This document shows, piece by piece, positions 12,563 through 38,170 of a stretch of DNA of 52,847 bases. The notes under the pieces are model-generated. The model searched no databases and was not told where the DNA came from. It saw only the letters and a list, made by a program, of their open reading frames with translations. A program made the position numbers and the translations under genes. Source of the DNA: a virus (lineage: Duplodnaviria; Heunggongvirae; Uroviricota; Caudoviricetes); IMG/VR virus record IMGVR_UViG_2663762646_000002; one strand, given 5' to 3'. The stretch's first letter is position 1. Each line of letters starts with the position of its first letter.

Positions 12563-12566
12563 GGGA

Positions 12567-16152: not shown

Positions 16153-16983
16153 ACCGGACTCCTCCTGCGATCCCTTCTGATACTGTCATCAGCATTACGT
16201 CATCCTCCGTCATGTCCGCCACATCCGGGGAAGCGGGGATAACTTCATTCCCGTCCGGGCCAAAGCGGACGCCTCCGGCAAGCCCTGCCGCTTTCTGCAT
16301 CAGCACATCATCTTCAGGCTCTTCGTCAGCCTCGCGCCGGTTCAGCAGACTGAAATCCAGCGGATGCATATCCGGATCGCTGAAAAACAGGCTGAGCACG
16401 GTGTACGTCAGCCCGGAAAAGTGCATATCCAGCAGAACATCATGAAAATAATGGGTACTGTAAAAGCGGTGCCAGTCGGCATACTCCGTGGATGACATCC
16501 CGGCAAGCATGGCACGCCAGTCGGGTCGCCCCATCTCACGCGCCAGTTTCAGGGCAAAACTCAGCTCACCGTCGAACACTTTCCCGCAGAAACAGGCTCT
16601 GCGGGCCCGACGTCCTCTGTCTGTTCAGGGGCATTATTCACCACAAACTCATACATACCAGACAGCCGGTACACCACGTTTTCAGCATGAGAAATTGCCT
16701 CCGTGGGCCAGGTGGTAAGCACTTCCTGCTCAATCTGTTTAACGGCTTCATTCATGGACGGCATCTGCGTCTTCTGCGGATGGTTATGCCACAGGGACAT
16801 CGCCACCAGAAACGCGCCGGTTCTGATGGCGTCTTCCACAGTAAACTTCCGGTTGCTGTCTGACTCCGCCTGTTCTGCCTGCCGTTTCATCAGGGCGAGA
16901 TGCTCAATGCGCTGCAGGGCTGACAGTTCAGAAAGCGTGACGGTCACACCGTTATGTTCAAATGATTCGGTTTTCAGGAACAT
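16145..16983 (-). CDS. T: tail assembly chaperone G-T fusion (made by -1 programmed frameshift)
   Basis: T frame (16145-16579) continues from the G frame after the slippery heptamer GGGAAAG; junction reads ...SAGKVFDGELSFAL as in lambda gpGT. Confidence 0.85.
16561..16983 (-). CDS. G: tail assembly chaperone G
   Basis: 140 aa, matches lambda G in length and sequence as recalled. Confidence 0.95.
   Translation of the reverse strand: MFLKTESFEHNGVTVTLSELSALQRIEHLALMKRQAEQAESDSNRKFTVEDAIRTGAFLVAMSLWHNHPQKTQMPSMNEAVKQIEQEVLTTWPTEAISHAENVVYRLSGMYEFVVNNAPEQTEDVGPAEPVSAGKCSTVS
16579..16585 (-). promoter_or_regulatory. programmed -1 ribosomal frameshift slippery site (G GGA AAG) for G-T
   Basis: Plus-strand CTTTCCC at 16579-16585 is GGGAAAG on the coding strand, a few codons before the G stop. 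Confidence 0.8.
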
Positions 16984-16998
16984 CGCTGACTCTCCGGA

Positions 16999-17739
16999 TT
17001 AACTGGCGGTGACGGTAATTTCTGCAACCGCAGCAAACTCACCATTACCGGATACAACCGGAATGTTGACCTTGCCTGCAGCAACGCCGTTCACGGTGAT
17101 GGTCATACCACTGACCGACACGGTGGCTTTTGTTTTATCCGCAGACACCGCACGAAAGCTCTTGTCGGTTACGCCCTCCGGCTGGAAGGCCACGGTCAGC
17201 GTGGTGCTCTGCCCTTTCACCACCGAGGTGCTGGCAGGCGTCACGGTCATGCCGGTTGCCGCTGTTACCGTGCTGCGATCTTCTGCCATCGACGGACGTC
17301 CCACATTGGTGACTTTCACCGTACGGGTGATCACTTCCTTCGCCGTCACCGCCTTACCGATACTGCTGACCCAGCCACGGAACACATCGACCGTGCCGTT
17401 CGGGAAGCGGATTTTATAGGCACGGGTATCGCCTTCATTAAACCACGCCAGCAGCGCCTGCTGCCCCTGCTCTCCGGGCATCCACGCCAGCGTGAAGCTG
17501 GTATCTCCGGCAGATTTCTGCCCCTGCCCGGTCGCAGTCCAGTCTGCATCTTCATCATCGAGATAGCTGTCGTCATAGGACTCAGCGGTCAGTTCGCCGG
17601 GCGTCAGGTCTTTAACTTTTGCCAGACGCGACCAGTCAACGTCTGAAAGCGGATTCGCATAAGGGTCACCGCTCCCCTTATAAACCCACAGGGTGGTCCC
17701 GGCACCTTTCACCGGCATTGTAGGATTTGGTACAGGCAT
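16999..17739 (-). CDS. V: major tail tube protein V
   Basis: 246 aa from [15 protein letters not shown]...; matches lambda V; C-terminal Ig-like region. Confidence 0.95.
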
Positions 17740-17746
17740 AGCGTCC

Positions 17747-18142
17747 TCACATTTCATAGGTAATGACATAAGTCAGATCGGCTGAACTCCACAGGCCCGC
17801 ATCATCGTCGCGCCGGTAGTCATAGCCGCTGGCCACCATACTGGTGATCAAATCTGACAGTGCCGGGATATCGCTCATCACCGGATAAATCCGGGACTCC
17901 ATCCACGCATCCAGCTCTGAATCCGGCACCTGAGCAGGCAGGAAAACTTCGATATGCAGCTCCGCCTGCCAGGTATCGCTGTCCAGCTCTTCGCCCGTGT
18001 ATTCAGCGCCGGTGAGATAAACGGCAACTGCCGGAAAATCCGCCTCATCAAAAACAGCGGGGCGACCATCAAAAAACGTCGCCCCGGTGTCATGCTTCTC
18101 CAGTGCATCCAGTATGGCTGCACGGAGTTCAGTATGTTTCAT
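17747..18142 (-). CDS. U: tail terminator protein U
   Basis: 131 aa, matches lambda U. Confidence 0.95.
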
Positions 18143-18717
18143 CGCTTTATTACCATCCTCAGTTGATGCTGCAGCGCATAGCCCAGCTCTTTCGGAAGAC
18201 GTTCACGCCGTATCCGCTCAATATTTTGTTTAAACGCCGTGGTCAGCGGCACCGCCATCGGGATTTTCACCACATCAATGGGGTAACGGTTTTTCCCGGC
18301 CACACGCTGCATGACATGCCACCGGCCATTTTTCAGTTGCTGAATAAACGCGCCGGGAATACGACGGTTACCCACCACAAGCACGCTGCCGCCACCTTTC
18401 AGGGATGAACGCTGCCCCTTTTTACGACGCCTGCGGCGCGAAAGGACAACCCGCGCATTACCCAGCTTGATTACGGGCAAATCCCCCCGGTTAACTTTGA
18501 TTCTGGCCTGCGGATTTTTGACCGTGGCCCTTTTCAGCCTGGCCCTTTCCTTTACCAGTTTCCGGCGTACCTTTGTCTCACGGGCAACCTGTGACGCCGA
18601 CTGCGATATCGCGGATGAAGCAACGCGGTTAATAGCCATTGCGGCGGCACCGGGCACCGCCGCTCTGCTGATACGACTGAGGTTTTCAACGGCCTGCTCA
18701 AGACCTTTTATGGCCAT
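18139..18717 (-). CDS. Z: tail completion protein Z
   Basis: 192 aa, matches lambda Z. Confidence 0.95.
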   Translation of the reverse strand: MAIKGLEQAVENLSRISRAAVPGAAAMAINRVASSAISQSASQVARETKVRRKLVKERARLKRATVKNPQARIKVNRGDLPVIKLGNARVVLSRRRRRKKGQRSSLKGGGSVLVVGNRRIPGAFIQQLKNGRWHVMQRVAGKNRYPIDVVKIPMAVPLTTAFKQNIERIRRERLPKELGYALQHQLRMVIKR

Positions 18718-18728
18718 ACATCCCCCTT

Positions 18729-19082
18729 TCAGCGGCGACGGTTAACGGCAGGCGGTACGCCCCGCCCAAGCCAGAGATGACCGCTTCCGCCATCATCCGG
18801 CGAAATCCGGTCTATCCAGAAGTTTTCCTCACCGATGGTCAGCGTGTCGCCGCGCCGCAGCTGCCGCACATCATCAGTCCGGACAAACAGGGACGGGCTG
18901 GAGCCTTCAACGCGCACGCCCTGTCCGGCATAGCTGATATTTTCAGGGTCATCAAAAACACCACGTATCACAGCACCGGACTGCTCACCGGATGTCATGG
19001 TGGCTGACGTTCCCATGTACCCGCGTATCGTTTCATCGGCGCGGGCAATGGCAGCATCGAACAGGTTATCGAAATCAGCCAC
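18729..19082 (-). CDS. FII: head-tail joining protein FII
   Basis: 117 aa, matches lambda FII. Confidence 0.95.
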   Translation of the reverse strand: MADFDNLFDAAIARADETIRGYMGTSATMTSGEQSGAVIRGVFDDPENISYAGQGVRVEGSSPSLFVRTDDVRQLRRGDTLTIGEENFWIDRISPDDGGSGHLWLGRGVPPAVNRRR

Positions 19083-19093
19083 AGCGCCTCCCG

Positions 19094-19489
19094 TTATTGC
19101 ATTCTGGCCAGGCCGCGCTCTGTCATTTCAGCTGACACACCGGCAGAGACACGGAACGCCGTTCCCGGCAGCACAAATGCCACAGCCTCATCCCGCGTGG
19201 CGTGAAGTGCATCAGTATGCAGCGTCACCAGTGCCACAACCGTGACCAGATCAGCCGTATCAGTCACGGTATCCGGCTGCGCTGATACAACCTCATTTTC
19301 ATGTCCGGTCAGCGCATTTTCCGGGCTGACAGATGTGTCCTGACCGGCAGCGTCATCCGTGTCATCAAGCTCCTCTTCCAGCTCTGCCACACGGAGCACC
19401 AGTTCTTCTTTCGTCCCCGTCAGGCTGACATCACGGTTCAGTTGCTCACCCAGCACCTGAAGACGGGCAATCAGTTCATCTTTCGTCAT
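19094..19489 (-). CDS. FI: DNA packaging protein FI
   Basis: Start set at MTKDELIARL (lambda FI N-terminus); the tracked ORF has a 13-codon upstream extension. Confidence 0.9.
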   Translation of the reverse strand: MTKDELIARLQVLGEQLNRDVSLTGTKEELVLRVAELEEELDDTDDAAGQDTSVSPENALTGHENEVVSAQPDTVTDTADLVTVVALVTLHTDALHATRDEAVAFVLPGTAFRVSAGVSAEMTERGLARMQ

Positions 19490-19530
19490 AGACTCCTCCA
19501 CAGAGAGAAAATGGCCCCGAAGGGCCATGA

Positions 19531-20556
19531 TTACGCCAGTTGTACGGACACGAACGCATCAGGGTCAGCCAGCAGCATCAGCGGTGCTGACTGAATCATG
19601 GTGAACTCACGCGCCGGATCGCCGGTGGTCACCCAGTTTTTCGGGTAGCGGGCAGAGGCGTTAATACCTTCGCGCTGTGCGTCCGCATCCTGAATGCAGC
19701 CATAGGTGCGCAGACCGCGTGCCTGAGTGTTCCCCAGCACCATCGAGTTGTCCGGAAGGAAGTTCTTTTTGACGTCGTTTTCCACGTACTGTCCGGAATA
19801 CACGACGATCGCCGTATCGCCATACATCCCCTTATAGGACACCGCTTCGCCCAGGTCTTTTACCGCTGTCTCCAGCTCGGAATTAGAGCCGCGACGGGTA
19901 TCCAGCTTCTCCTTGACGGCTTTGAAGGAACGGAACAGCGCCCAGCCTTTCGGATCAAACACGATGATATTCACCACTCCGCTGGCGTTCAGCGCATAGG
20001 CTTCGATATCGTCGGTCGGGTCATACGTGGACTTGTCACGCTTGCTCCACTCCGTACCACCGGACTGTGTGATGTTGTTCGCCGCACTGCGGCCCATATC
20101 CACCTCAACCGGATCGAAGGCTTCACCGGTCATGGTGTATTTGCCCTTAAGCACAGCAGAAACTGCCTGCATCTCTTCGACCTGAGCAATGGCCAGCTCT
20201 TCGTCTCGCATGTTCTGCATGATGATGCGACGGCGGCGGTAAGCCGGGTCCGCCAGATTCTGCGGATCTTCATCCGGCAGGCGACGCAGGGTCATCTGCG
20301 GATTCACCTCATGCTTCGGCTTGACATATCCCGGTGTAAATTCAGAGGTGGAGCCGCCACGGGAGCGGATAACCTCACCGGAAACAATCGGCGAAACGTA
20401 CAGCGCCATGTTTACCAGTCCCGGAATTTGTGAGAGATAGACTTTCTCCGTAGTGAAGGGATAGCTCTCACGGAAAAAGAGACGCAGAAACAGCGGATCA
20501 AACTTAAATTTCTGCTCATTTGCCGCCAGCAGCTGGGCGGTTGTGTACATCGACAT
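19531..20556 (-). CDS. E: major capsid protein E
   Basis: 341 aa from MSMYTTAQLLAANEQKF...; matches lambda E. Confidence 0.95.
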   Translation of the reverse strand: MSMYTTAQLLAANEQKFKFDPLFLRLFFRESYPFTTEKVYLSQIPGLVNMALYVSPIVSGEVIRSRGGSTSEFTPGYVKPKHEVNPQMTLRRLPDEDPQNLADPAYRRRRIIMQNMRDEELAIAQVEEMQAVSAVLKGKYTMTGEAFDPVEVDMGRSAANNITQSGGTEWSKRDKSTYDPTDDIEAYALNASGVVNIIVFDPKGWALFRSFKAVKEKLDTRRGSNSELETAVKDLGEAVSYKGMYGDTAIVVYSGQYVENDVKKNFLPDNSMVLGNTQARGLRTYGCIQDADAQREGINASARYPKNWVTTGDPAREFTMIQSAPLMLLADPDAFVSVQLA

Positions 20557-20611
20557 AAAAAAATCCCGTAAAAAAAGCCGCACAGGCGGCCTTTAGTGAT
20601 GAAGGGTAAAG

Positions 20612-20944
20612 TTAAACGATGCTGATTGCCGTTCCGGCAAACGCGGTCCGTTTTTTCGTCTCGTCGCTGGCAGCCTCCGGCCAGAGCACATCCTCATAAC
20701 GGAACGTGCCGGACTTGTAGAACGTCAGCGTGGTGCTGGTCTGGTCAGCATCAACCGCAAGAATGCCAACGGCAGCACTGTCGGTGGTGCCATCCCACGC
20801 AACCAGCTTACGGCTGGAGGTGTCCAGCATCAGCGGGGTCATTGCAGGCGCTTTCGCACTCAATCCGCCGGGCGCGGTTGCCGTATGTGCCGGGTCACTG
20901 TTGCCCAGCGGCTGGTAATGGGTAAAGGTTTCTTTGCTCGTCAT
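20612..20944 (-). CDS. D: capsid decoration protein D
   Basis: 110 aa from [12 protein letters not shown]...; matches lambda D. Confidence 0.95.
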
Positions 20945-20953
20945 AAACATCCC

Positions 20954-21559
20954 TTACACTGGTGTGTTCAGCAAATCGTTAACGGCATCAGATGCCGGGT
21001 TACCTGCAGCCAGCGGTGCCGGTGCCCCCTGCATCAGACGATCCAGCGCAGTGTCACTGCGCGCCTGTGCACTCTGTGGTGCAGCTGCCAGAATGCGGCG
21101 GGCCGTTTCCACGGTCATACCGGGGGTTTCTGCCAGCACGCGGGCCTGTTCTTCGCGTCCGTGAGCCTCCTCACAGTTGAGGATCCCCATAATGCGGCTG
21201 TTTTCTGCCGCAACCGCTGCGGTGATCTGCGCGTTCACGTCCGGCTGCGCCGCGCTGGCGTTCTCGCCCTCCGTCGCTGGCACCACGTCAGTAACGTCAG
21301 CCTGCGAAGCAGTGGCTGAAACAGTTGTTGATTGAGTCTCTTTGGTCATTCGCCCTCCTGAGAGACGGGATTTACGTGCATCCAGTGCATCACGCATGAC
21401 GGTGATCGCATCGGTGCTGTTAACAAGTTCATCAGCCAGTCCGGCATCAATGGCCTCCTGACCGCTGTACACTGCAGCCTCGGTATCCAGCACAGCCTGC
21501 ACGGACAGGCCGGTATATGCCGACACCTTCTGCGCAAACATCTGGCGGGTTGCGTCCAT
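20954..21559 (-). CDS. Nu3: scaffolding protein Nu3 (in-frame internal start within C)
   Basis: Internal ATG at 21559 giving MDATRQMFAQKVSAYTGL..., 201 codons in the C frame, same arrangement as lambda Nu3. Confidence 0.75.
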   Translation of the reverse strand: MDATRQMFAQKVSAYTGLSVQAVLDTEAAVYSGQEAIDAGLADELVNSTDAITVMRDALDARKSRLSGGRMTKETQSTTVSATASQADVTDVVPATEGENASAAQPDVNAQITAAVAAENSRIMGILNCEEAHGREEQARVLAETPGMTVETARRILAAAPQSAQARSDTALDRLMQGAPAPLAAGNPASDAVNDLLNTPV

Positions 21560-22253
21560 CCGGGACTGCAGTGTCTCCCGGACGTCATCCGGAAGATGGC
21601 TGTAGGGGTTGCCATCCACCTTATGGCTGCCGCTGTAAATCAGCGTGATTTCCACACCCTGTTTCTCCAGCGCAGCACCGTAATTACTGTGAGCCATCAT
21701 GACGCCGATGGAGCCTGTCCGGGCGGTCTGCGTGACCAGACGCCGGGAGGCGGCACTGGCAAGCAACTGACCTGCACTGCAGTTCATGTCGTTGGCAAGC
21801 GCCCATACCGGTTTTATGTCACGCACACGGGCGATGATGTCAGCGCAGTCAAATGCCCCCGCCACCATCCCGCCGGGCGTGTCCATATCGAGCAGAATGC
21901 CGTCCACCATCGGATCGCTGGCAGCCTGTTGCAGACGGGCGATAATGCCGTTGTAACCGGTCATCCCCGAGTACGGCTGCAGCGCCCGCGTCCGGCTGAC
22001 CAGCGTGCCGGACACCGGCAGCACGGCGATGCCGTTCATGACCTGATAACTGCGGGCCTGTCGTGGTCCGTCATCATCACCGGATAATGCCAGCGTCGCG
22101 AGTGCCTCCTGGGCAGTCAGGCTGTCGCCGGACACCGCATCCGTCAGGCGGCTGATCCCAAGCTGGCCTGCAAGCGCACAAAAGAAAACCCGCGCATAGG
22201 CGGGTTCAAGCATCAGCGGCTCATTAAAGGCCATGCTGGCAATATGCGGGAGA

Positions 22254-22273
<20 letters not shown>
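20954..22273 (-). CDS. C: capsid maturation protease / minor capsid protein C
   Basis: 439 aa from a GTG codon at the position of the lambda C start (VTAELRNLPHIASMAF...); 20-nt overlap with B as in lambda. Confidence 0.9.
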
Positions 22274-25954
<3,681 letters not shown>

Positions 25955-25980
<26 letters not shown>

Positions 25981-26500
25981 TCAGCAACCCCGGTATCAGT
26001 TCATCCAGCGCGGCTGCTTTGTTCATGGCTTTGATGATATCCCGTTTCAGGAAATCAACATGTCGGTTTTCCAGTTCCGGAAAACGCCGCTGCACCGACA
26101 GGGGGATCCCGTCGAGAATACTGGCAATTTCACCTGCGATCCGCGACAGCACGAAAGTACAGAATGCGGTTTCCACCACTTCAGCGGAGTCTCTGGCATT
26201 TTTCAGCTCCTGTGCGTCGGCCTGCGCACGCGTAAGTCGATGGCGTTCGTACTCAATAGTCCCTGGCTGGAGATCTGTCTCGCTGGCCTGCCGCAGTTCT
26301 TCAACTTCCCGGCGCAGCTTTTCGTTCTCAATTTCAGCATCCCTTTCGGCATACCATCTTATAACGGCGGCAGAGTCATAAAGCACCTCATTACCCTTGC
26401 CACCGCCTCGCAGAACGGGCATTCCCTGTTCCTGCCAGTTCTGAATGGTACGGATACTCGCACCGAAAATGTCAGCCAGCTGCTTTTTGTTGACTTCCAT
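25955..26500 (-). CDS. nu1: terminase small subunit Nu1
   Basis: 181 aa, MEVNKKQLADIFGASIRTIQNWQEQGMPVLRGGGKGNEV... matches lambda Nu1. Confidence 0.95.
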
Positions 26501-26720
26501 TGTTCATTCCACGGCCAAAAACAGAGAAAGGAAACGACAGAGGCCCAAAAGCTCGTTTTCAGCACCTGTCGTTTCCTTTCTTTTCAGGGGGTATTTTAAA
26601 TAAAAACATTAAGTTACGACGAAGAAGAACGGAAATGCCTTAAACCGGAAAATTTTCATAAATAGCGAAAACCCGCGAGGTCGCCGCCCCGTAACCTGTC
26701 GGATCGCCGGAAAGGACCCG
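26500..26720 (-). other. cos site (cosQ-cosN-cosB), contiguous as in a prophage
   Basis: Plus strand 26644-26689 is the reverse complement of the lambda left end GGGCGGCGACCTCGCGGGTTTTCGCTATTTATGAAAATTTTCCGG; the 12-nt cohesive end is at 26678-26689; the following bases match the lambda right end (...CGATCCGACAGGTTACG). Confidence 0.9.
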
Positions 26721-26888
26721 CAAAATGATAATAATTATCATCTGCATGTCACAACGTGCATCTACGCCATCAAACCACGTCAAATAATCAATTATGACGC
26801 AGGTATCATATTAATTGATCTGCATCAACTTAACGTAAAAACAACTTCAGACAATACAAATCAGCGACACTGAATACGGGGCAACCTC

Positions 26889-27122
26889 ATGTCAACGAAG
26901 AACAGAACCCGCAGAACAACAACCCGCAACATCCGCTTTCCTAACCAAATGATTGAACAAATTAACATCGCTCTTGAGCAAAAAGGGTCCGGGAATTTCT
27001 CAGCCTGGGTCATTGAAGCCTGCCGCCGGAGACTGTGCTCAGAAAAAAGAGTTTCTTCTGAAGCAAACAAAGAAAAGAGTGACATTACTGAATTGCTCAG
27101 AAAACAGGTCAGACCAGATTGA
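26889..27122 (+). CDS. ynfO: small DNA-binding-like protein (YnfO/YlcI family)
   Basis: 77 aa, MSTKNRTRRTTTRNIRFPNQMIEQINIALEQKGSGNFSAWVIEACRRR...; position between cos and ydfO as in Qin. Confidence 0.7.
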   Translation: MSTKNRTRRTTTRNIRFPNQMIEQINIALEQKGSGNFSAWVIEACRRRLCSEKRVSSEANKEKSDITELLRKQVRPD

Positions 27123-27179
27123 AGCAATTTAGATAATCGTGCAGACTACGCCCCCTCATATCACATGGAAGGTTTATCT

Positions 27180-27590
27180 ATGGATCAGGTAGTCATTTTT
27201 AAACAAATATTTGATAAAGTTCGAAACGATTTAAACTATCAATGGTTTTATTCTGAGCTAAAACGTCACAATGTCTCACATTACATTTACTATTTAGCCA
27301 CAGAGAATGTTCATATTGTATTAAAAAATGATAATACAGTGTTATTAAAGGGCCTAAAAAACATTGTGTCTGTCAAATTTTCAAAGGATAGGCATCTTAT
27401 AGAAACGACCTCTAATAAGCTGAAATCCAGAGAGATCACATTTCAGGAATACAGAAGAAACCTTGCTAAAGCAGGAGTTTTTCGGTGGGTTACAAATATC
27501 CACGAACAAAAAAGATATTACTATACCTTTGATAATTCATTACTATTTACTGAAAGCATCCAGAAAACTACACAGATCTTACCACGCTAA
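27180..27590 (+). CDS. ydfO: DUF1398-type prophage protein (YdfO/YbcV family)
   Basis: 136 aa from the second ATG (27180), which has a GGAAGG Shine-Dalgarno 7 nt upstream; matches YdfO as recalled. Confidence 0.75.
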
Positions 27591-27741
27591 ACCATAACGT
27601 CCGGCTTCTCTCACTCCTGAGCCGGACTGCATTGGTTTAATAAAAACCATCAACAATTGTGATTTAGATATTCGGAACCATTCAAATATAACAAAACCCC
27701 GTAAAAACGAGGTTTATGGATAAATTTTATTATTGAATACA

Positions 27742-27914
27742 TCAGATTAAATTAATCTTGACATCATAGCTTTCAAGACCCGTCATTTTTTCCCGTGCGG
27801 TAAACTGAATACTGGTAACTTCTTTCCCGGTCTTTTTCTTAAGTTCAATAATTTTTTTGTTATATATTCAGAAATATCTGCTTCTGCTTTTGTTTTTAAG
27901 TTTTCAATATTCAT
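27742..27914 (-). pseudogene. gnsB: gnsB-like gene (GnsA/GnsB family) with a -1 frameshift in an A7 tract
   Basis: N-terminal frame MNIENLKTKAEADISEYITKK and, one frame away, ...IELKKKTGKEVTSIQFTAREKMTGLESYDVKINLI* both resemble GnsB; the frames meet at a run of 7 A (plus-strand T7 at 27852-27858); a good SD (AAGAGGAA) precedes the ATG. Confidence 0.65.
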
Positions 27915-28085
27915 CATTTCCTCTTTTAGTCTGTTATGACTTTCCAGTTACACAGTAAGTCGATTATATGGTGCAAACGTGTAAAAGATAAGATGAAACA
28001 TCGCAATAATCAACATACGATAGTCTAAATTTTACACAAACAGACAAAGAGAATTTTCCTGAATTATCAATGCAATAGCATCAAA

Positions 28086-28241
28086 TCAATTCAAGAGCCT
28101 TATTGCTGCTTCCAGAATTTCTTCTGAAGTAACATGTCGATCCGCGGCTACATAAATGACTTTATGATCTCCGGTCAGAGATGGAAACCCTGCGGCCATT
28201 ACAGTAAGGTGTGTTTTTTCGCCATTTGGATATTCACGCAT
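28086..28241 (-). CDS. small protein at the Qin ynfN position
   Basis: 51 aa from MREYPNGEKTHLTVMAAGFPSLTGDHKV...; the ORF extends in frame upstream to an ATG at 28316 (MKKIIVFFNSEPAVVVPA..., 76 aa), so the true start is uncertain. Confidence 0.5.
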   Translation of the reverse strand: MREYPNGEKTHLTVMAAGFPSLTGDHKVIYVAADRHVTSEEILEAAIRLLN

Positions 28242-28587
28242 GATGGTGTTAACTCCAGTCATCGCTGGCACTACCACTGCTGGTTCAGAGTTAAAAAAAA
28301 CTATGATTTTTTTCATGATGTTACCGTAGTATGTGAGTATCCATCGAATAGACACCAAGCAAAAAAGCTCCCGAAGGAGCCTTCATTTTCACTTTTTTAA
28401 ATCCAACGACAGACGGCTGGCATTTAAGTATTGTGAAATATTATCAAATGTAATCATCATTGATTTACAAAAGATACATTTTGCCCCGAAAGGATTCATG
28501 TCAGAAACATCAAAAGATGATGTTCTATACTGGGAACCATGACAACACGGGCATCTAAAGTGAATATGGTTTGTAATATTGTCTACC

Positions 28588-28800
28588 TCAAAGCGCCACT
28601 ACATGAACAGCGGCAGGACCTTTAGGTCCGTTCTCAATACCAAATTCAACTTCCTGATTCTCAGTTAATGTTTTGAAATCGTTGCTCTGAATTGCTGAGA
28701 AATGGACAAACACATCTTTGCTGCCATCTTTCGGCGTGATGAAACCAAAACCTTTTTCAGGGTTAAACCATTTCACTAAACCAGTCATTTTGTTAGACAT
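28588..28800 (-). CDS. cspI: cold-shock protein (CspA family)
   Basis: 70 aa, [38 protein letters not shown]... with RNP motifs; position as cspI in Qin. Confidence 0.9.
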
Positions 28801-29162
28801 AATTATTACCTTTTGAAGAAATTAGCCCTTGGGCAGAATGGTCCGAAAAAAAATATCAGAGAGAAAAACCAACAAGGAAATCTCAAGAGGTACAAATAAT
28901 AAAATTATAACAATGACTGCTTCAGATAAATTTGTAACAAACCAGAACACCATTAACGCATGATTAACCACCCATAGCAAGGATTACTTTTGTAAAGAAA
29001 AACACAGCAATGAAAGAATAGCTTTATTTATTAATAAAACGTGTCATTCTGATTAAGACCTTTTATCTTACCCTTAAGATTTCAGGAATTTTGGCTCATG
29101 GAAGAGTCCTTTTTATTTAAATTTTACATTCCGCGATGTAAATGTTCCGATTTAATATTACC

Positions 29163-29696
<534 letters not shown>

Positions 29697-30157
29697 TCAC
29701 GACGAATAACCTGACCGTAACAGTTATTTGAACGAATGCGGCAATCGCGTCCGCCATCCTTAATCCACCAGCGAATCGCTTCGCATGCACCTTTACGATC
29801 ACCAGCATTCAGCCGCTTATAAAACGTCGACGGGAAACACTTACCGGGGCCAATGTTATAGGGACAAAATGACGCGATACCCGCTTTTTGTGGTTCGGTC
29901 AGTGGTACTTTAATATTGCGCTCCACCCATGCCAGCGCCTTATCACGCTCAATGGCGTTGACCTGGTCGCATTTTTCCTTCGACAGTTTCATATTGGGAA
30001 AAACGGTTTTTCCATCCACCACTGTGGCACCCCGACAGATGGTCCATATGCCAGAACCATCGCGGTATGCCATTGTGTGGTTACCTTCTTTTTCGTCCAG
30101 AAACTGGTCAAGTATCTGAGGAGCAGATGATCCTACCCACGTAATATGGACACAGGC

Positions 30158-31024
30158 CTAAGCGAGGTTCTTGTTTTCAAATTGTTCCGGACTGAGGCCG
30201 CCACACCAACTGTGCCGCCGCCACCGATTGTAATCACATTCGATATAATTAAACACCGTTGCCCGCATTATTTCCCGGCTGATAAAGTGTTCTCCATGGA
30301 TACATTCCACTTTCAGCGAATGAAAGAAGCTTTCCACGCAGGCATTATCGTAGCAGCAACCTTTTGCGCTCATACTTCCACGCAGATTATGCCGCTTCAG
30401 TTGCGCCTGATAATCTGCTGAACAGTACTGGCCTCCACGGTCCGTGTGAACGATAACGTTCCGGGGCCTCTTACGCCGCCACAGCGCCATCTGCAGGGCA
30501 TCGCAGGCCAGTTGCGCCGTCATGCGTGGCGACATTGACCAGCCAATAACGGCACGTGACCACAGGTCAATGACCACTGCCAGATACAGCCAGCCTTCAT
30601 CTGTACGTAAGTACGTGATGTCTCCTGCCCACTTCTGGTTCGGGCCACTGGCGTAAAAATCCTGCTCCAACAGATTTTCTGACACAGGCAGGCCGTGTGC
30701 GCGGTAGCTGACCGGGCTGAACTTCCGGGAGGCCTTTGCCCTCAGTCCCTGACGGCGCAGGCTTGCCGCCACGGTTTTTACGTTAAAGGGGTAACCCTGA
30801 GCACGCAGTTCATCCGTCAGGCGTGGGGCACCGTAACGCTGTTTTGACCGGGTAAAAGCCGCGAGGACAACGCTGTCGCAGTGTTGGCGGAACTGCTGAC
30901 GCGTGCTTATCCTTGTCCGCCGCTGACACCACGTATACCAGCCGCTGCGGGCCACCCGGAGCACGCGGCACATTGCTTTGATGCTGAACTCAGCCTGATG
31001 TTTTTCAATAAAGACATACTTCAT
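30158..31024 (-). CDS. insF: IS3 transposase OrfB (InsF), DDE/rve domain
   Basis: 288 aa, matches IS3 InsF as recalled. Confidence 0.9.
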
Positions 31025-31320
31025 TTCAGGCGCTTCGCGAAGTATGTCGCGGCCTTTTGGAGGATAGCCAGCTCTTCATCCCGTTCTGCCAGCTGGCGTT
31101 TGAGACGTGCAATCTCGGTAGACATCTCCAGTTCACGTTCAGAAGACGTCTGCTGATTTTGCTGTTTACTGCGCCAGTTGTAGAGTTGTGATTCATACAG
31201 GCTGAGTTCACGGGCTGCGGCAGTAACACCGATGCGTTCAGCAAGCTTCAGGGCTTCACTGCGAAATTCAGGCGAATGCTGTTTACGGGGTTTTTTACTG
31301 GTTGATACTGTTTTTGTCAT
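31021..31320 (-). CDS. insE: IS3 transposase OrfA (InsE), HTH
   Basis: 99 aa from [31 protein letters not shown]...; overlaps orfB as expected for IS3-family frameshifting. Confidence 0.9.
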
Positions 31321-31448
31321 GTGAGTCACCTCTGACTGAGAGTTTACTCACTTAGCCGCGTGTCCACTATTGCTGGGTAAGATCACAGATGCGCCAGCAC
31401 CAATCAGCGCCAGAACGGCAGCCGACAGGCCGTATCTGATTTTTGTGT

Positions 31449-31760
31449 TCATAGATATTTATGATGAGGACGCTCGTGCTTATTGGCAGGATTTTCAATC
31501 TTAAAGGAGTACTGATGCTGCAGATAAGACTCAACTTTTTCTGACAATTTTTCTGCTACTTCCAGGAAGACTTGCCGGACGCTCCTTCTGGCTGCTGCCT
31601 CATAAAACTCCAGCGCAGCTCCTTCAACACGGTCCATGGCGACATCCAGGTCAAAAATTTCACCGTCAAAGCGTTCTTTGTCCTGTAAGGCTACAGTTAC
31701 CGTAACTTTATTCTCAAAATTACGGACTCCTTTCACAACCAGTTCATAGTCTTGAGTCAT
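31449..31760 (-). CDS. ydfR: DUF826-type prophage protein
   Basis: 103 aa; stop overlaps the endolysin start (ATGA); position as ydfR in Qin. Confidence 0.7.
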   Translation of the reverse strand: MTQDYELVVKGVRNFENKVTVTVALQDKERFDGEIFDLDVAMDRVEGAALEFYEAAARRSVRQVFLEVAEKLSEKVESYLQHQYSFKIENPANKHERPHHKYL

Positions 31761-31764
31761 TGGA

Positions 31765-31980
31765 TTACTCTCCTCTCGCAGCCTTACGCCTGTCTTCTTT
31801 AATCTTGAAATAAAGATTTGTCAGATACGTCAGCAGGCCAAAAACCAGGCTACCCAGCACACCGATTGCAGCCCACTGTGACGGAGTTACTTTATCGAGT
31901 AACTGCAATGCCCAGAAACCAGCATTACCCGCCGATGTGCCATAGGCAACACCTGTTGTTAACTTATCCATTGATTTCAT
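31765..31980 (-). CDS. essQ: holin (class II, EssD/EssQ-like) with dual-start motif
   Basis: 71 aa from [28 protein letters not shown]..., two TM segments; Met1-Lys-Ser-Met4 dual start; sits upstream of the endolysin gene. Confidence 0.85.
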
Positions 31981-32199
31981 ATCCTCACCCCGATGTACAC
32001 GGATGGTGCAATATGTTTGAAAAGATCGGAGTCTACGGGGTAGTTTTGACAGCACACGTTGTTCTCAACGGCGCTAAAAAAACATACACATTAAAAATGT
32101 GGGTAATTATTTTGAAAGAAAGTCATATATAAAATAATAATACGAGAAATGTTTTCATATTTAGTGTACTGTATACGGCCATTTATACAGGAAAAGCCT

Positions 32200-32370
32200 A
32201 TGTCAGAACGTAAAAACTCAAAATCACGCCGTAATTATCTCGTTAAATGTTCCTGCCCAAACTGCACCCAAGAGTCAGAACACAGTTTTTCAAGAGTACA
32301 AAAAGGTGCCCTTTTGATCTGCCCTCATTGCAACAAAGTATTCCAGACAAATCTTAAAGCTGTAGCCTGA
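32200..32370 (+). CDS. small zinc-ribbon protein (CxxC...CxxC), function unknown
   Basis: 56 aa from ATG 32200 with AGGAAAA SD; motifs CSCPNC and CPHC. Confidence 0.5.
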   Translation: MSERKNSKSRRNYLVKCSCPNCTQESEHSFSRVQKGALLICPHCNKVFQTNLKAVA

Positions 32371-32733
32371 TTGATTTTATTAGTAACAAGTATTTTTTAT
32401 ATTTTAATAATATATTTAAAGCAGATAATAAAAAACCCGCCTGAGCGGGTTTGAGATTGTGGTGCTTTTTGTGGGAGTCATCCACTTACGCACTTTGTTT
32501 TGCCATGCCAGCAGTTAGCTTCTGCTGTAAAACTATTCATGCAGCAAACCTGCACTTCACCACAATGGTTAGCATACTTTTCCTGATTAAGATTTTGCCA
32601 AATATGCTAGCCATTGTTTCATGTATTGGACCTCCTTACTTTTTATTAAAGAGATCCAATATTCACTACTCTGTCCGTATCTCTACTCAGGCATCAGCCT
32701 TCTTCGTTATCGTATACAGACGAGCGATGAATT

Positions 32734-32949
32734 TTAATCAGTAATGATGACATTTGCTGCTGCAGGACCTTTAGCACCACTCTCTATAGAGAAGGTAACC
32801 TTTTGACCTTCAAATAAGGTTCGATAATTATCATTCTGAATCGCAGAAAAATGCACAAACACATCTTTACTACCATCAACAGGAGAAATAAAGCCGAAAC
32901 CTTTATCAGCGTTAAACCATTTTACTAAACCAGTCATTTTATTTGACAT
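32734..32949 (-). CDS. cspB: cold-shock protein (CspA family)
   Basis: 71 aa, [38 protein letters not shown]...; divergent from cspF. Confidence 0.9.
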
Positions 32950-33249
32950 TCTACATTCCTTAACTTGAGCCTTTCGGCATAAATGGTTTGCATAACAGAA
33001 ACGACTTCGTACTTAATTGGAGAGACTCAAAGAAGGAATAAGTGAATAACACCTGAAATGAGAACTGCTTTAGTAAACTACTTCGTATATCGTCTGTTCT
33101 TCAAACCGACGCAATCATTAACGCATAGTTGAACATATGAAGCAATGTTTATTTTAGACATCCAGCCATCTTCAACCCCATCAAAAAACTATAGCTTTCT
33201 TCAGGAACGTGTGTATAGTGCGCCAAGTTATCAGTATTAAGGAATTTTT

Positions 33250-33462
33250 TTGTCCCGTAAAATGACAGGAATTGTCAAAACCTTTGACGGCAAAAGCGGC
33301 AAGGGTCTTATCACCCCATCCGATGGTCGTATCGATGTCCAGCTTCATGTTTCAGCGCTCAATCTCCGCGATGCAGAAGAAATTACCACCGGATTACGCG
33401 TGGAATTTTGCCGGATAAATGGTCTGCGTGGCCCTTCAGCTGCCAATGTTTACCTTTCATGA
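33250..33462 (+). CDS. cspF: cold-shock protein homologue (CspA family)
   Basis: 70 aa, [38 protein letters not shown]... Confidence 0.85.
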
Positions 33463-33754
33463 GCTATATTAAAGCTTTAATTTCAGGCCCCATCGGATCA
33501 CACATGGAGAGTTTTTATGAATAACCCCGTCTGTCTTGATGACTGGTTGATTGGCTTTAAAAGCTTATGCTGTACTTTGGCCGTAATAGCTCTGCTAATA
33601 ATATAATAAGCAGACTCATTGTGTTTAGGGACATTGTACTGGAAGAAAACATTTTAAACATCAGGCAAATAACCAAGTCACCAGCTAAATAATAAGTTAA
33701 CAGACATGAGTCCCGGGATGAGATTCAACATTACCATTGCCCCATTTAAAGCAC

Positions 33755-33788
33755 AAAACCCGCTCATCAGCGGGTTTTCTACTTTTTC
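33755..33788 (-). terminator. tR'-like intrinsic terminator downstream of the late promoter (hairpin usable on both strands)
   Basis: AACCCGC-TCATCA-GCGGGTT hairpin flanked by T runs on the plus strand and by UUUUGUG on the minus strand. Confidence 0.5.
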
Positions 33789-33823
33789 TTAACGTCGGGT
33801 ATACAAAGCCCATCGTTGAAAAA

Positions 33824-33852
33824 ATTTTATCCATATTTTTTGAAAAATGCAA
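33824..33852 (-). promoter_or_regulatory. PR'-like late promoter / qut region downstream of Q
   Basis: Minus strand TTGCAT-17 nt-TAAAAT, about 30 nt after the Q stop, same layout as lambda PR' (TTGACT-17-TAAATT). Confidence 0.45.
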
Positions 33853-33883
33853 ACATCATGTCGCCATCTTCAGCAAAAATCAT

Positions 33884-34636
33884 TTATCTCGTCACCTTCC
33901 TCAATTGCGCTTCCGCGTATGCTTCTTCCTGCCAGCACTTTGTTACCAGTTTACCAATGACGTCCGCATACCCCTTATACCACTGATAATCGGTCAGGTC
34001 TGGTACCAGCTTCTGGACATGACGTCGTGCCAGCGTGGTCGGTAAACGACTAAACCGGTTTCCATTACAACGCCCACAAATCTTATATACCGGTACGCCA
34101 TGAAACCGGGTTCTTTTTTCATCCAGAACAATCCCTTTACCCTTACACCCTCTGCACGCTGTGCTGGCTTCGCCCTTACCATGGCAATGCTGACATAGTT
34201 CCTTCACCCATTCTTCCTTGATTACAGATTCCCCGCGTCTGTAGTGTTTCACCACTTCGCGCAATACATTATAAAATCCCGTACCTGAACAATGCTCACA
34301 GCGAGCCTTACTTGCCGCAGACCTGGAGTAATCAGCAAAGGCAAAACTCACGAGGTAAGGAATAATCTGTAACCGGATTTCTTCACTCAATTTGTTCAAT
34401 GTCGGGTTATCCAGTGCCATCGCGTAATTTAGCAGGCCTTCAATCGCAAACTGAGGGTCCTGAACACCAACTTTTGCCAGAAATAAGGCCAACCCAAGTG
34501 GTGCTTTCGACTGCACCATCCCCTGCGCTGCCATTACATCCGTAATTGTTAAACAACCGGTGCCTGTCGCTGGAGCGTCATCGCTCAATTTTGGAGATTT
34601 TGGGGAGTAATATTTTGGTAAGGCTTCAAGGTTCAT
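33884..34636 (-). CDS. quuQ: late-gene antiterminator Q
   Basis: 250 aa from MNLEALPKYYSPKSPKLSDD...; Cys-rich zinc-binding region (CEHCSGTG, CQHCHGKG, CRGCKGKG). Confidence 0.85.
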   Translation of the reverse strand: MNLEALPKYYSPKSPKLSDDAPATGTGCLTITDVMAAQGMVQSKAPLGLALFLAKVGVQDPQFAIEGLLNYAMALDNPTLNKLSEEIRLQIIPYLVSFAFADYSRSAASKARCEHCSGTGFYNVLREVVKHYRRGESVIKEEWVKELCQHCHGKGEASTACRGCKGKGIVLDEKRTRFHGVPVYKICGRCNGNRFSRLPTTLARRHVQKLVPDLTDYQWYKGYADVIGKLVTKCWQEEAYAEAQLRKVTR

Positions 34637-34649
34637 GCTCGTTCTCCAC

Positions 34650-35699
34650 TTACGCCAGTACGCCAATTGTCAGCGCGCGATCGATAAAACGAAATATCAG
34701 CTCCAGTTGGGAGCCATACTTATCTTCAAATGCCACTGTATCCGTATGCAGCTCGTTGTGATGCTTTCTGCACAAAGGCAACACAAAGAGATCATGTGCT
34801 TTTGTTCCCATTCCGCCCTGCCCGTGACCAATCAGATGATGCGGATCGTCGGCTGGCATACCGCAGCAAGCACACGGCTGTGTCTTAACCCAACGTGTGT
34901 ATTTCTCCTTAACCCAGCGGCGACGTTTAGGCAGCTTCATGAAAGATTCCGGAGACTCTGGATCAACGGTGATGCTTACCACCGTCTTTTCCTGTGGTGA
35001 TTTTTGTTGCTGGTGGGCGTAAGGCAACGGTGCAAGATTTTTTGTGCGTTGTTTCAATATGCTGGTGGCGGTCTGCTCTCCCGGTACGATGTCGCTTTCG
35101 CGGTACACCGAGCAGATTTTTTCCGCTGGTAATCCCAGCGAACGACGCGATACAGCCTCAGGTAGTGCATCCACCACCTGATTGCAGACCGCCCACCAGG
35201 ATAATTCAGCCAAAGATAATTCCCGCTCCTGCGTACCGCTTATTGCGTGACGGATGACGTCAATCACCCATGCTGTCAGATTTTGTTGAGCAAGCAGCTC
35301 CAGTGATTCCGATGTCTGGTCACGCAGTTGGTTGTCGCAGTGCCAGCACAACACCATTGCGCCGGTACCATAACGGTGAATGACTGTTTCAGTGTGATGG
35401 TAATCGCCATTAGGCCACTGGCAGGATGTAACATGACGTAATAGCCAGTCGGACAATGCGCCAACGCCGCCAGCAGCACGAATCACCCGTTCGTTACTAA
35501 AAAACGGCAGCAATGTTTTGTCTTCCGCCAGCGGCTGGCGAACGGCAGGAACGACTCCGGATGGCAGATTACGCATGCTTTTTGGTTCCGGTTCCACCAG
35601 CACTCGAGGATTATGAAATATCTGTATGGATTCACGGCCCGGCTTAAGGACCACCAGCCCAAGCTCAGGCACCAGAACAGGTCTAAGTAATACCCGCAC
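34650..35699 (-). CDS. ydfU: DUF968-type prophage protein with C-terminal Cys/His-rich (HNH-like) region
   Basis: 349 aa from a GTG start preceded by GGAGGT; C-terminal motifs CACCG...HHLIGHGQGG...CRKHHNELH. Confidence 0.7.
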   Translation of the reverse strand: MRVLLRPVLVPELGLVVLKPGRESIQIFHNPRVLVEPEPKSMRNLPSGVVPAVRQPLAEDKTLLPFFSNERVIRAAGGVGALSDWLLRHVTSCQWPNGDYHHTETVIHRYGTGAMVLCWHCDNQLRDQTSESLELLAQQNLTAWVIDVIRHAISGTQERELSLAELSWWAVCNQVVDALPEAVSRRSLGLPAEKICSVYRESDIVPGEQTATSILKQRTKNLAPLPYAHQQQKSPQEKTVVSITVDPESPESFMKLPKRRRWVKEKYTRWVKTQPCACCGMPADDPHHLIGHGQGGMGTKAHDLFVLPLCRKHHNELHTDTVAFEDKYGSQLELIFRFIDRALTIGVLA

Positions 35700-35700
35700 G

Positions 35701-35979
35701 TTACCTCCAGATCCGTTGCTGGAAAGTGCGGGACGCACGTGGTGGGCGTTCGGAATAAGGCAGCCTGACAGAGATTATCCAGTGCCGATAGTCGAGACTG
35801 AGAGCTTTCTTAACCTCGAACCCGCGCCTGCGGTAAGAATGAATCAGCCATTCGGCCTGTTCTGCAGTGCATGGAGGGTGCTGGAACCATTCAGACTTGA
35901 ATGCGTGAGAATACCGCCCGTGCGTGCAGGCAAGAACGGGCGAATTATCAGAATTGTAATATTTTGCGTTGCGTGCCAT
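35701..35979 (-). CDS. small Cys/His-containing protein, function unknown
   Basis: 92 aa, ATG with GGAGAAAA SD; MARNAKYYNSDNSPVLACTHGRYSHAFKSEWFQHPPCTAEQ... Confidence 0.55.
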   Translation of the reverse strand: MARNAKYYNSDNSPVLACTHGRYSHAFKSEWFQHPPCTAEQAEWLIHSYRRRGFEVKKALSLDYRHWIISVRLPYSERPPRASRTFQQRIWR

Positions 35980-36045
35980 CGGTTTTCTCCGGTGGCACGG
36001 TGTTACTCAGCGGGAGTTCAGCCCCGCGCAAGATTGTAGATGAGT

Positions 36046-36297
36046 TTATTCTCCTGAAAAAGCAGAAAAGCCAGCTTTTATTCCGATCTCTTTCAATGCC
36101 TGTAATGAAGTGACAAACTCACCTTCGCGCAAGATAAATCCGTCCGTGACCCGAGCATCCACAAAATTAATTAACGCAGCCCCATTCTTTCGCAAACACA
36201 TAATGCGGTAATGACTAACAAGATTTCCATTTTCAACGCACACAGCATAGAGGCCATCTTCACAAAAAATTTTACGCAGTTCTTCGATGTTCATCAT
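36046..36297 (-). CDS. rem: small prophage protein Rem (function unknown)
   Basis: 83 aa with a strong SD (GGAAGGA); length and position between ydfU and hokD fit Rem as recalled; sequence identity not verified. Confidence 0.5.
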   Translation of the reverse strand: MMNIEELRKIFCEDGLYAVCVENGNLVSHYRIMCLRKNGAALINFVDARVTDGFILREGEFVTSLQALKEIGIKAGFSAFSGE

Positions 36298-36412
36298 CAG
36301 AATCCTTCCGGATAATTAGCTCTCCCCTTTAAGGGACCATCCCTCTTATCCCTGCGCGCTACTTAAGTATTTTTGATTCTATTCCGGCACCGTCCAGAAC
36401 TTCAAACGCGTT

Positions 36413-36446
36413 GAAAATAAAAACAAAAACCCGCCGAAGCGGGTTA
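36413..36446 (-). terminator. rho-independent terminator after the relBE-hokD operon
   Basis: Minus strand AACCCGC-TTCG-GCGGGTT hairpin followed by TTTTTGTTTTTATTTT. Confidence 0.65.
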
Positions 36447-36513
36447 AGTGCGGGTGCGTTGAGGATGCCTGCCACATCAGAGGTGGCGAGGGATTTCTCC
36501 CCCGCCGGGTCTC

Positions 36514-36669
36514 TTACTCCTCAGGTTCGTAAGCTGTGAAGACAGCGACCTCCGTCTGGCCGGTTCGGATTCGTACCTCGCAGAGGTCTTTCCTCGTTAC
36601 CAGTGCCGTCACTATGACGGTTAAACAGATGACGATCAGGGCGATTAACATCGCCTTTTGCTGCTTCAT
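36514..36669 (-). CDS. hokD: Hok-family type I toxin
   Basis: 51 aa, MKQQKAMLIALIVICLTVIVTALVTRKDLCEVRIRTGQTEVAVFTAYEPEE, found by manual translation; too short for the supplied ORF track. Confidence 0.9.
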   Translation of the reverse strand: MKQQKAMLIALIVICLTVIVTALVTRKDLCEVRIRTGQTEVAVFTAYEPEE

Positions 36670-36740
36670 AGCCTGCTTCTCCTGTCAACGCAAAGCAGAA
36701 GTGTCACCTTCGGTGCGAAACAGAGATGTCATGCTTTGGT

Positions 36741-37028
36741 TCAGAGAATGCGTTTGACCGCCTCGCTATATACTTCCGAGCGTTCTCTTTTCCCAACAGA
36801 AATCACGAAAACGACAACTTTCTCGTCTATAACCTGGTATACAAGGCGATAGCCTGAAGACCGGAGCTTAATCTTGTAACAATCAGGCATACCACGGAGC
36901 TTGTTTGCTTCAATCCGGGGTGACTCAAGTACTTCAACCAGCTTCTTTTTCAACTGTTCACGTACCGTCGAGCCCAGCTTTCGCCATTCCTTTAGTGCCC
37001 GCTCGTCAAAATCCAGAAAATACGCCAT
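36741..37028 (-). CDS. relE: RelE mRNA interferase toxin
   Basis: 95 aa, MAYFLDFDERALKEWRKLGSTVREQLKKKL... matches RelE. Confidence 0.9.
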   Translation of the reverse strand: MAYFLDFDERALKEWRKLGSTVREQLKKKLVEVLESPRIEANKLRGMPDCYKIKLRSSGYRLVYQVIDEKVVVFVISVGKRERSEVYSEAVKRIL

Positions 37029-37267
37029 CAGAGTTCATCCAGCGTCACACGTACTGGCTTAGGATTACGAAGCCGTTCTTTCACTATCTCCACAAGTTCA
37101 GCATCTTCATCACTCAGGAGTGTCTGTTTGAACGGCAAGCGTTCATTGTCAGCGATATACTCGAGCATGAGACGAAGCGCTTCAGAAGGAGTTACACCCA
37201 TTTTTTCAAGCGCGGCGTAAGAACGCGCTTTAAGTTCATCGTCAATACGCAGGTTAATGCTACCCAT
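37028..37267 (-). CDS. relB: RelB antitoxin
   Basis: 79 aa, MGSINLRIDDELKARSYAALEKMGVTPSEALR... matches RelB; immediately upstream of relE. Confidence 0.9.
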   Translation of the reverse strand: MGSINLRIDDELKARSYAALEKMGVTPSEALRLMLEYIADNERLPFKQTLLSDEDAELVEIVKERLRNPKPVRVTLDEL

Positions 37268-37277
37268 GTCTTACACC

Positions 37278-37306
37278 TCTTGTAATTACAAATGTCATTA
37301 CAAGTA
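37278..37306 (-). promoter_or_regulatory. relBE promoter/operator (relO) region
   Basis: Tandem TTGTAAT hexad-type repeats (minus strand TTGTAATGACATTTGTAATTACAAG) just upstream of the relB SD and ATG. Confidence 0.55.
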
Positions 37307-37597
37307 TCGCACTACAACATGCTTAGGGCAAGTCACGAAGGAAGTCAGAAAGTAGTCGTAAGAACGGTGATCACTGTCCGCTTTGTGCCAGGAGCAGCCA
37401 TTGCTAAGTCCATCCTGTATTGTGCAGGTCAGCTCGTTTTTAAAGAGTCCGGCCATCATCTTACTGGTACAGACACCATATACTTTGTGACGGTCAGGCT
37501 ACATATGCACAACTCAACTTATTCATCTATTTTTTGCTTTAGCATGTCAGTGTTGCTTTCTCGTCGGCGGGTGAGCGGTGACCTGACCTGTCGATAA
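37292..37597 (+). CDS. ydfV: small protein YdfV (function unknown)
   Basis: 101-aa ORF divergent from relB at the Qin ydfV position; its start lies inside the relBE operator region, so coding status is uncertain. Confidence 0.45.
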   Translation: MSLQVSHYNMLRASHEGSQKVVVRTVITVRFVPGAAIAKSILYCAGQLVFKESGHHLTGTDTIYFVTVRLHMHNSTYSSIFCFSMSVLLSRRRVSGDLTCR

Positions 37598-37749
37598 AGG
37601 AACGTAACACGTTTTATGCAACACCCGCATGCGGCAGAAAATTATTGCCGAACGTTTACCCCTGTCAACAAGCTTTACTTTCTGAGGCGCGCCAGCCCGC
37701 GAGGAAAACAATCTGAACATCAAACAATTAATGACACAAGAAATACGAT

Positions 37750-37776
37750 TAAAGATTTTTTTGTGCATGCCGATAG
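37750..37776 (+). promoter_or_regulatory. sigma-28 (FliA) promoter of flxA
   Basis: TAAAGATT-11 nt-GCCGATAG, a near-perfect match to the FliA consensus TAAAGTTT-N11-GCCGATAA, 24 nt upstream of the flxA ATG. Confidence 0.75.
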
Positions 37777-37799
37777 TGCTTTTTTAAAAGGAGAAATCT

Positions 37800-38132: not shown

Positions 38133-38146
38133 GTGACAGCCGTATT

Positions 38147-38170
38147 GTGGCCCTCATCGGGCCACTTTTC
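38147..38170 (+). terminator. rho-independent terminator after flxA
   Basis: GTGGCCC-TCATC-GGGCCAC followed by TTTT. Confidence 0.7.

Follow-up and report, generated by a model that had tools for sequence, protein, structure and literature searches.

The stretch of DNA under analysis, 52,847 nucleotides in full length and termed the window below, very probably (probability about 0.93) represents nearly the whole of a Qin-lineage lambdoid prophage that lies within ydfJ, with a lambda-type cos site, a complete head and tail module, packaging that should work and host lysis that should fail. Within the window, the prophage extends from the ydfJ-side att core up to the stop codon that ends the integrase gene. 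This undeleted form of Qin is real, ordinary and already known, and it serves as an illustration of prophage decay rather than as a discovery, since the form is common in Escherichia coli and a near-identical phage is already in GenBank. Its importance beyond bookkeeping is small; the sole strain-specific point is a recent IS3 insertion in the endolysin gene, with the prophage presumably stranded in the chromosome.

The window aligns with two overlapping stretches of E. coli GZ04-0086 at 99.98% and 99.93% identity; there the prophage is flanked by ydfJ, truncated at its 5' end, and by rspB, which follows int. The insertion is in ydfJ, between ydfI and rspB, as in K-12. The truncated host transporter gene, whose 5' end has been cut off by the prophage, occupies positions 1-1284 on the minus strand (RefSeq annotation by PGAP, GZ04-0086) and is 99.9% identical to K-12. 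An 11-bp direct repeat, the att core GAAATCCATAA at 1276-1286, marks the ydfJ-side junction of prophage and host. A second copy of the core is located about 38 bp past the window end in GZ04-0086, and Escherichia phage PhiR42_1 carries the fused attP.

The K-12 reference was the cryptic prophage Qin, NC_000913.3 1632277-1652745. Five collinear blocks match it (window 1-4839, 25972-30129, 31386-38753, 46016-49503 and 51688-52847), totalling 21,013 bp at 99.66-99.97% identity, and the Qin gene set is near-identical, encompassing pinQ, tfaQ, ynfO, ydfO, cspI/B/F, essQ, rrrQ, rzpQ, quuQ, relBE, hokD, flxA, dicA/C/F/B and intQ. The claim of an earlier note that the flanking genes are those of K-12 Qin is thus borne out, the flanks being of Qin type, at the identical ydfJ insertion site, with at least 99.7% identity. 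That note had described the window as a far less decayed relative of Qin; it is undeleted, as claimed, but "relative" understates the connection, as both represent one prophage lineage at one locus.

Three deletions lead from the layout of the window to that of K-12. The first covers window 4840-25971 (21,132 bp), running from the interior of stf to five codons before the end of Nu1, with a 2-bp microhomology (TA). The second covers 38754-46015 (7,262 bp) and comprises the replication region and mobile elements, with a microhomology of about 3 bp. The third covers 49504-51687 (2,184 bp) and comprises the 3' part of the exonuclease gene, xis and the 5' part of int, with an IS2E fragment in K-12. 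The K-12 gene stfQ corresponds to the remaining 3884-4839 of stf (deletion endpoint 4839/4840), and nohA to approximately the first 176 codons of Nu1 (deletion endpoint 25971/25972). These two odd K-12 genes are explained as the two stumps of a single 21-kb deletion, and the statement in the earlier note that the K-12 structural genes are gone and that nohA is a Nu1 remnant proves correct. Because collinear truncated pieces such as stfQ and nohA arise by deletion and never by insertion, K-12 is the derived, deleted state and the window the older one. The comparison provides a base-resolution route from a PhiR42_1-like lambdoid phage to the textbook cryptic Qin of K-12. The former presence of lambda-type packaging and tail-fibre genes in K-12 Qin was already implied by the names nohA (Nu1 homologue), stfQ and tfaQ. 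A paper on urinary coliphages mentions neither the related phages Kati and Chlobot nor Qin.

Phage PhiR42_1 (PV340562.1, host ECOR13) has the same backbone from int to pinQ. Its early and late regions are 99.8-99.97% identical to the window and its structural block only 97.8%, a difference which indicates that modules have been exchanged among lambda-like phages. All annotated PhiR42_1 proteins are intact in the window apart from three: the endolysin, gnsB and a doubtful ORF opposite dicF-dicB. PhiR42_1 differs in having neither the IS3 in the endolysin gene nor the IS66 element, in an intact gnsB, and in a Stf that is 93% identical. Its standing as a phage that forms plaques is based on its GenBank entry (host ECOR13) and on plaque assays that employed the PhiR panel, where the PhiR series is described as 'temperate phages related to lambda' (PMC13190303, citing Brenes and Laub, Cell Host Microbe 2025). 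The deposited sequence repeats about 780 bp at its ends (3-782 and 47888-48668), both matching window 1521-2301, and is written att-to-att, not cos-to-cos.

Prophages at the Qin locus span 11-97 kb, the larger ones with capsid and tail genes, and this size range has been read as superintegration (Ramisetty and Sudhakari 2019, PMC6379469). Such a reading would have the lambda-like structural block acquired later by a short Qin remnant, leaving the window uninformative about the ancestor of K-12 Qin, and the exchange of modules suggested by the lower identity of the structural block to PhiR42_1 also speaks for it. However, stfQ and nohA of K-12 are collinear internal fragments meeting at a 2-bp microhomology, a pattern that insertion cannot yield, and the window contains only one cos, one Nu1 and one structural gene set. 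The undeleted Nu1-cos-ynfO-ydfO layout is, moreover, about ten times commoner than the K-12 junction. Of 5426 complete E. coli genomes, 3209 contain it when a single location must cover 80% or more of a 1.2-kb query; 1229 of the 5426 hold 80% or more of window 1-25000 in one place, and at most 376, largely K-12 laboratory strains, have the K-12 stfQ/nohA fusion junction. The undeleted layout is thus the majority state in sequenced E. coli. Among phage-collection records, 23 cover the cos query, including PhiR42_1. Secondary acquisition of the structural block is very unlikely and was rejected on account of the K-12 gene stumps.

Loss of the block by deletion in K-12 remains the preferred reading, and it upholds the proposal of the earlier note that the ancestral morphogenetic module was lambda-like, stfQ and nohA being truncated pieces of an intact stf and Nu1. 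The sequence comparison supports a lambda-type identity for the module that K-12 Qin lost. Since lambda-like modules are exchanged, the exact module and alleles of the K-12 ancestor are unrecoverable beyond the surviving ends.

The head and tail module was compared with that of lambda at the DNA and protein levels. Window 8693-26689 corresponds to lambda 18002-1 at 98.1% DNA identity (blastn), an 18-kb match ending at lambda base 1. All 21 lambda proteins compared (Nu1, A, W, B, C, Nu3, D, E, FI, FII, Z, U, V, G, T, H, M, L, K, I and J) align from first to last residue without a stop codon, with identities of 82-100%. The alignment is gap-free in 19 of them, FI having one gap and J having gaps confined to its divergent C-terminal part. 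Gene order and lengths from Nu1 to J are those of lambda, and GGGAAAG, the G-T slip site, has kept the offset that it has in lambda. A search for missed frameshifts in the structural cluster yielded none.

All genes of the module lie on the minus strand. Nu1, the terminase small subunit of 181 aa (25955-26500), is 98.3% identical to lambda Nu1 and matches Pfam Phage_Nu1, and A, the terminase large subunit (24055-25980), is 99.2% identical to lambda gpA and contains GpA_ATPase and GpA_nuclease. The head genes E, D, C/Nu3, B and W (19531-24058) are full-length at 97-100% identity, with Pfam matches to Phage_cap_E and to Phage_portal_2, the lambda-family portal. The tail and head-completion genes I, K, L, M, H, T, G, V, U, Z, FII and FI (11250-19489) are 86-100% identical without a stop, and J, the tail tip and host-specificity protein of 1165 aa (7692-11189), is 82% identical to lambda J over its full length, also without a stop. 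Beyond J lie a gene for an Ail/Lom-family outer-membrane protein of 199 aa (7023-7622), annotated as such and 44% identical to lambda Lom at the amino-acid level; stf, the side tail fibre gene, an intact 1026-aa ORF (3884-6964) with partial matches to lambda orf401 and orf314; and tfa (tfaQ), the tail fibre assembly gene (3309-3884), whose product is 95% identical to lambda Tfa over residues 1-191 of 194. The earlier note had called Nu1 through J, lom, stf and tfa all lambda-like in length and sequence. This holds for the 21 full-length proteins and for Tfa; Stf is intact but divergent, and the Lom-family protein shares only 44% with its lambda counterpart.

The part of J encoded at window 7692-8692, its C-terminal part, has about 77% DNA identity to lambda or does not align. 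Given this part of J and Stf, receptor specificity probably differs from that of laboratory lambda. An Rfam match to family IS009 (221 bits) lies within the tfa coding region at 3343-3541 on the minus strand.

The likeness to lambda comprises the order cosQ, cosN, R3, I1, R2, R1, Nu1, the cohesive end, and Nu1-J, whereas the C-terminal part of J, the Lom-family gene and Stf are divergent, and nothing to the right of cos, from lysis and Q through immunity, replication and recombination to integration, is related to lambda except about 870 bp beside cos. Of the 48.5 kb of lambda, about 21 kb can be aligned, with nothing from its early, immunity, replication and integration region, which places the window outside Lambdavirus. 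As judged from its genes, the resemblance of the phage to lambda is limited to packaging and morphogenesis.

A single lambda-type cos site is located at window 26521-26719 on the minus strand, comprising cosQ, a 12-nt cohesive end and the R3/R2/R1 sites. With the Nu1 ATG at 26500, the flagged interval 26500-26720 brackets the entire site. Alignment to lambda places cosN at 26672-26692 (minus strand), with the 12-nt cohesive end GGGCGGCGACCT at 26678-26689, and the junction of the lambda left and right ends falls exactly at window 26689/26690 (blastn). An ungapped comparison across cosN shows 69 nt of perfect identity, lambda -16 to +53. On the right-end side, window 26690-27051 corresponds to lambda 48502-48141 at 95.3% (blastn). 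The cosQ motif GGGTCCT at 26713-26719 (minus strand) is unchanged relative to lambda 48473-48479, which we take to be the position of that subsite. On the other side, cosB (26521-26637, minus strand) comprises R1 (26521-26536), R2 (26567-26582) and R3 (26622-26637); the I1 region separates R3 from R2. Relative to lambda, R1 and R2 carry no change, R3 carries one substitution, the R3-R2 interval two substitutions and the R2-R1 interval a 1-bp deletion, with other spacing kept. PhiR42_1 has the same sequence in the R sites and in both intervals.

A chance resemblance or a dead relic would have to account for the 21-mer ACGGGGCGGCGACCTCGCGGG at 26672-26692 (minus strand), which has a single occurrence in the window and was absent from all 100 shuffles, for the intact Nu1 and A adjoining it, and for 320 bp around cos that are identical to the cos region of the deposited phage PhiR42_1. 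The shuffles led to the rejection of this explanation, whose probability is close to nil, and the site is read as a genuine lambda-type cos.

Campbell integration leaves the prophage map circularly permuted relative to the virion DNA, and cos is thus internal in the integrated map. A contiguous cos is therefore normal and not special: every integrated lambdoid prophage has one, and K-12 Qin itself keeps the whole cos site, inside the shared block 25972-30129. The earlier note was right that the cos junction is uninterrupted (26689/26690), but this does not distinguish the window from K-12 Qin, which has cos too.

The two sides of cos show different patterns of similarity. On the cosQ side (window 26690-26809, lambda 48383-48502), K-12 Qin matches lambda at all 120 bp, and at 11 of these positions the window and PhiR42_1 depart from both. 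Over 362 bp of the lambda right end, K-12 Qin is 98.3% identical and the window 95.3%. On the cosB side, lambda is the odd one out, with K-12 Qin, PhiR42_1 and the window sharing one sequence. This pattern places a mosaic boundary at or adjoining cosN. Lambda can reportedly pick up the cos/late region of K-12 Qin, yielding Q-independent 'qin' recombinants. A literature search on lambda qin recombinants and nohA returned nothing relevant.

From established lambda biology, we infer how the cos site would operate. Upon induction, Int and Xis would excise the prophage at the att core, and replication of the genome would generate concatemers. Nu1, encoded beside cos, would bind R3, R2 and R1 of cosB, helped by IHF bending, whereupon gpA would nick cosN to leave the 12-nt ends and the DNA would be packaged into proheads. 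The cosQ motif would ensure the correct terminal cut at the end of the packaging run, and tails (Z to J) would join the filled heads. Release is the step predicted to fail; the genes for all preceding steps are intact.

The predicted failure centres on the endolysin gene (rrrQ type; 29657-31452, minus strand), which is split by IS3 after codon 22 into a 5' part at 31387-31452 and a 3' part at 29657-30127. The IS3 copy (30128-31385, minus strand, 1258 bp, by annotation and by its junctions relative to K-12) has a CAGA repeat on either side. Only about 14 of the 5426 complete E. coli genomes share its junction, which indicates a recent, lineage-specific insertion. In K-12 Qin, rrrQ is intact and both the IS3 and the IS66 insertions of the window are absent; the intact K-12 copy of the endolysin matches Pfam Phage_lysozyme. 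The holin gene (essQ/essD, 71 aa) and ydfR occupy 31449-31980 on the minus strand; the holin is of phage-21 type (Pfam Phage_holin_2_1, PF04971), and the products are 100% identical to those of PhiR42_1. The spanin gene rzpQ (29163-29660, minus strand), with rzoQ embedded at 29213-29467, encodes products identical to those of K-12 and PhiR42_1.

The split-off N-terminus of the endolysin, MNTKIRYGLSAAVLALIGAGAS, has a hydrophobic composition with many Gly and Ala residues, and looks like a signal-anchor-release (SAR) domain. A SAR domain exports the endolysin without large holin holes, and the pinholin of phage 21 bars a cytoplasmic endolysin. The cassette resembles the phage 21/DLP12 type, a pinholin with a SAR endolysin, in the family of its holin ('Bacteriophage P21 holin S'), in its Phage_lysozyme endolysin and in the hydrophobic N-terminus, and differs in the extra ydfR between the holin and endolysin genes and in the disrupted endolysin. 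The lysis block is deduced from the 71-aa phage-21-type holin together with the hydrophobic, Gly/Ala-rich endolysin N-terminus; host lysis is expected to fail, and excision, replication and packaging to work.

A fully functional prophage, which upon induction would lyse its host and release plaque-forming phage unaided, is an improbable alternative. In its favour, the genes for head, tail, terminase, integrase, excisionase, replication, Q, holin and spanin have all stayed intact, at or near identity to PhiR42_1, and PGAP calls a 162-aa lysozyme ORF downstream of IS3. However, IS3 parts the first 22 codons, the predicted export segment, from the catalytic part, the 162-aa remnant starts inside the IS end with no evident promoter or export signal, and the small-hole holin is of a type that a cytoplasmic endolysin does not pass. 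A self-sufficient temperate phage is one in which no essential gene is disrupted, and the window, with its IS3-split endolysin gene, falls outside that definition. The low decay claimed in the earlier note accordingly applies to the structural block, which is whole, but not to the split endolysin, of which that note was evidently aware, the inserted IS66-family element and the frameshifted gnsB.

A lysis-defective prophage, the reading favoured here, may be conditionally rather than terminally defective, still excising, replicating, packaging at cos and forming infectious PhiR42_1-like virions in induced cells; we hold this tentatively, at somewhat less than even odds. If true, virions would escape only via the endolysin of another prophage, by breakage of the cell or upon loss of IS3, and the window would serve as an exact, base-level guide to reconstructing an active phage out of K-12 Qin. 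More remote is the idea that the host keeps the lysis-blocked particle machinery as something useful, which nothing here supports.

The remaining regulatory and early genes agree closely with PhiR42_1. A Q-type late antiterminator gene (ydfT/quuQ; 33884-34636, minus strand; Pfam Antiterm) encodes a product 100% identical to PhiR42_1 Q. The replication and immunity region at 44012-47000, containing genes for a methyltransferase, a DUF977 protein, an O-like protein, a ydaT/cII-like protein, dicC (cro-like) and dicA (repressor), encodes proteins that are likewise 100% identical to those of PhiR42_1. The DicA-type repressor of 135 aa (46593-47000, plus strand) has helix-turn-helix domains only, without a LexA/S24-type cleavage domain, and its domain content suggests that induction probably proceeds without lambda-style, RecA-stimulated self-cleavage of the repressor. 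The small RNA gene dicF (48042-48093; Rfam DicF, 76.7 bits), dicB and ydfD occupy 48042-48644 on the plus strand by annotation. The genes for an exonuclease (823 aa), an excisionase and an integrase (431 aa; Pfam Phage_integrase) are intact at 48737-52847 (plus strand), their products 99.8-100% identical to those of PhiR42_1, whereas K-12 has ydfE', IS2E and intQ' in this region.

Near the left end, the pinQ serine recombinase gene (2621-3211, plus strand, by annotation) encodes a product 98% identical at the amino-acid level to the PhiR42_1 copy. A search for a Pin-invertible segment beside pinQ gave only one weak 20-nt inverted repeat, 80% complementary, and such a segment was rejected on the basis of this single weak repeat. 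On the other side of cos from Nu1, the Qin-type genes ynfO and ydfO (26889-27590, plus strand, by annotation) encode proteins 100% identical to those of PhiR42_1. The gene gnsB (27742-27917, minus strand) is frameshifted in the window and intact in K-12 and PhiR42_1. The late region also contains the cold-shock genes cspI and cspB inside the prophage, and cspA-type thermoregulator leaders (Rfam) lie upstream of them at 28561-28946 and 32718-33110 on the minus strand.

Within the segment absent from K-12 Qin, a sok antitoxin RNA was detected at 39956-40127 on the minus strand (Rfam, 104 bits), separate from the hokD/relBE locus at 36514-37267; no convincing candidate for a hok ORF was found beside it. 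The intergenic IS66-family element (ISEc22-like; 41079-43533, plus strand) is delimited by its junctions relative to PhiR42_1 and by the 8-bp target duplication TCAAAACT. An uninterrupted 437-aa ORF for an ISNCY-family transposase (38569-39882, minus strand) is labelled partial by PGAP and annotated as two shorter genes in PhiR42_1; the transposase region is also present in the deposited phage genome.
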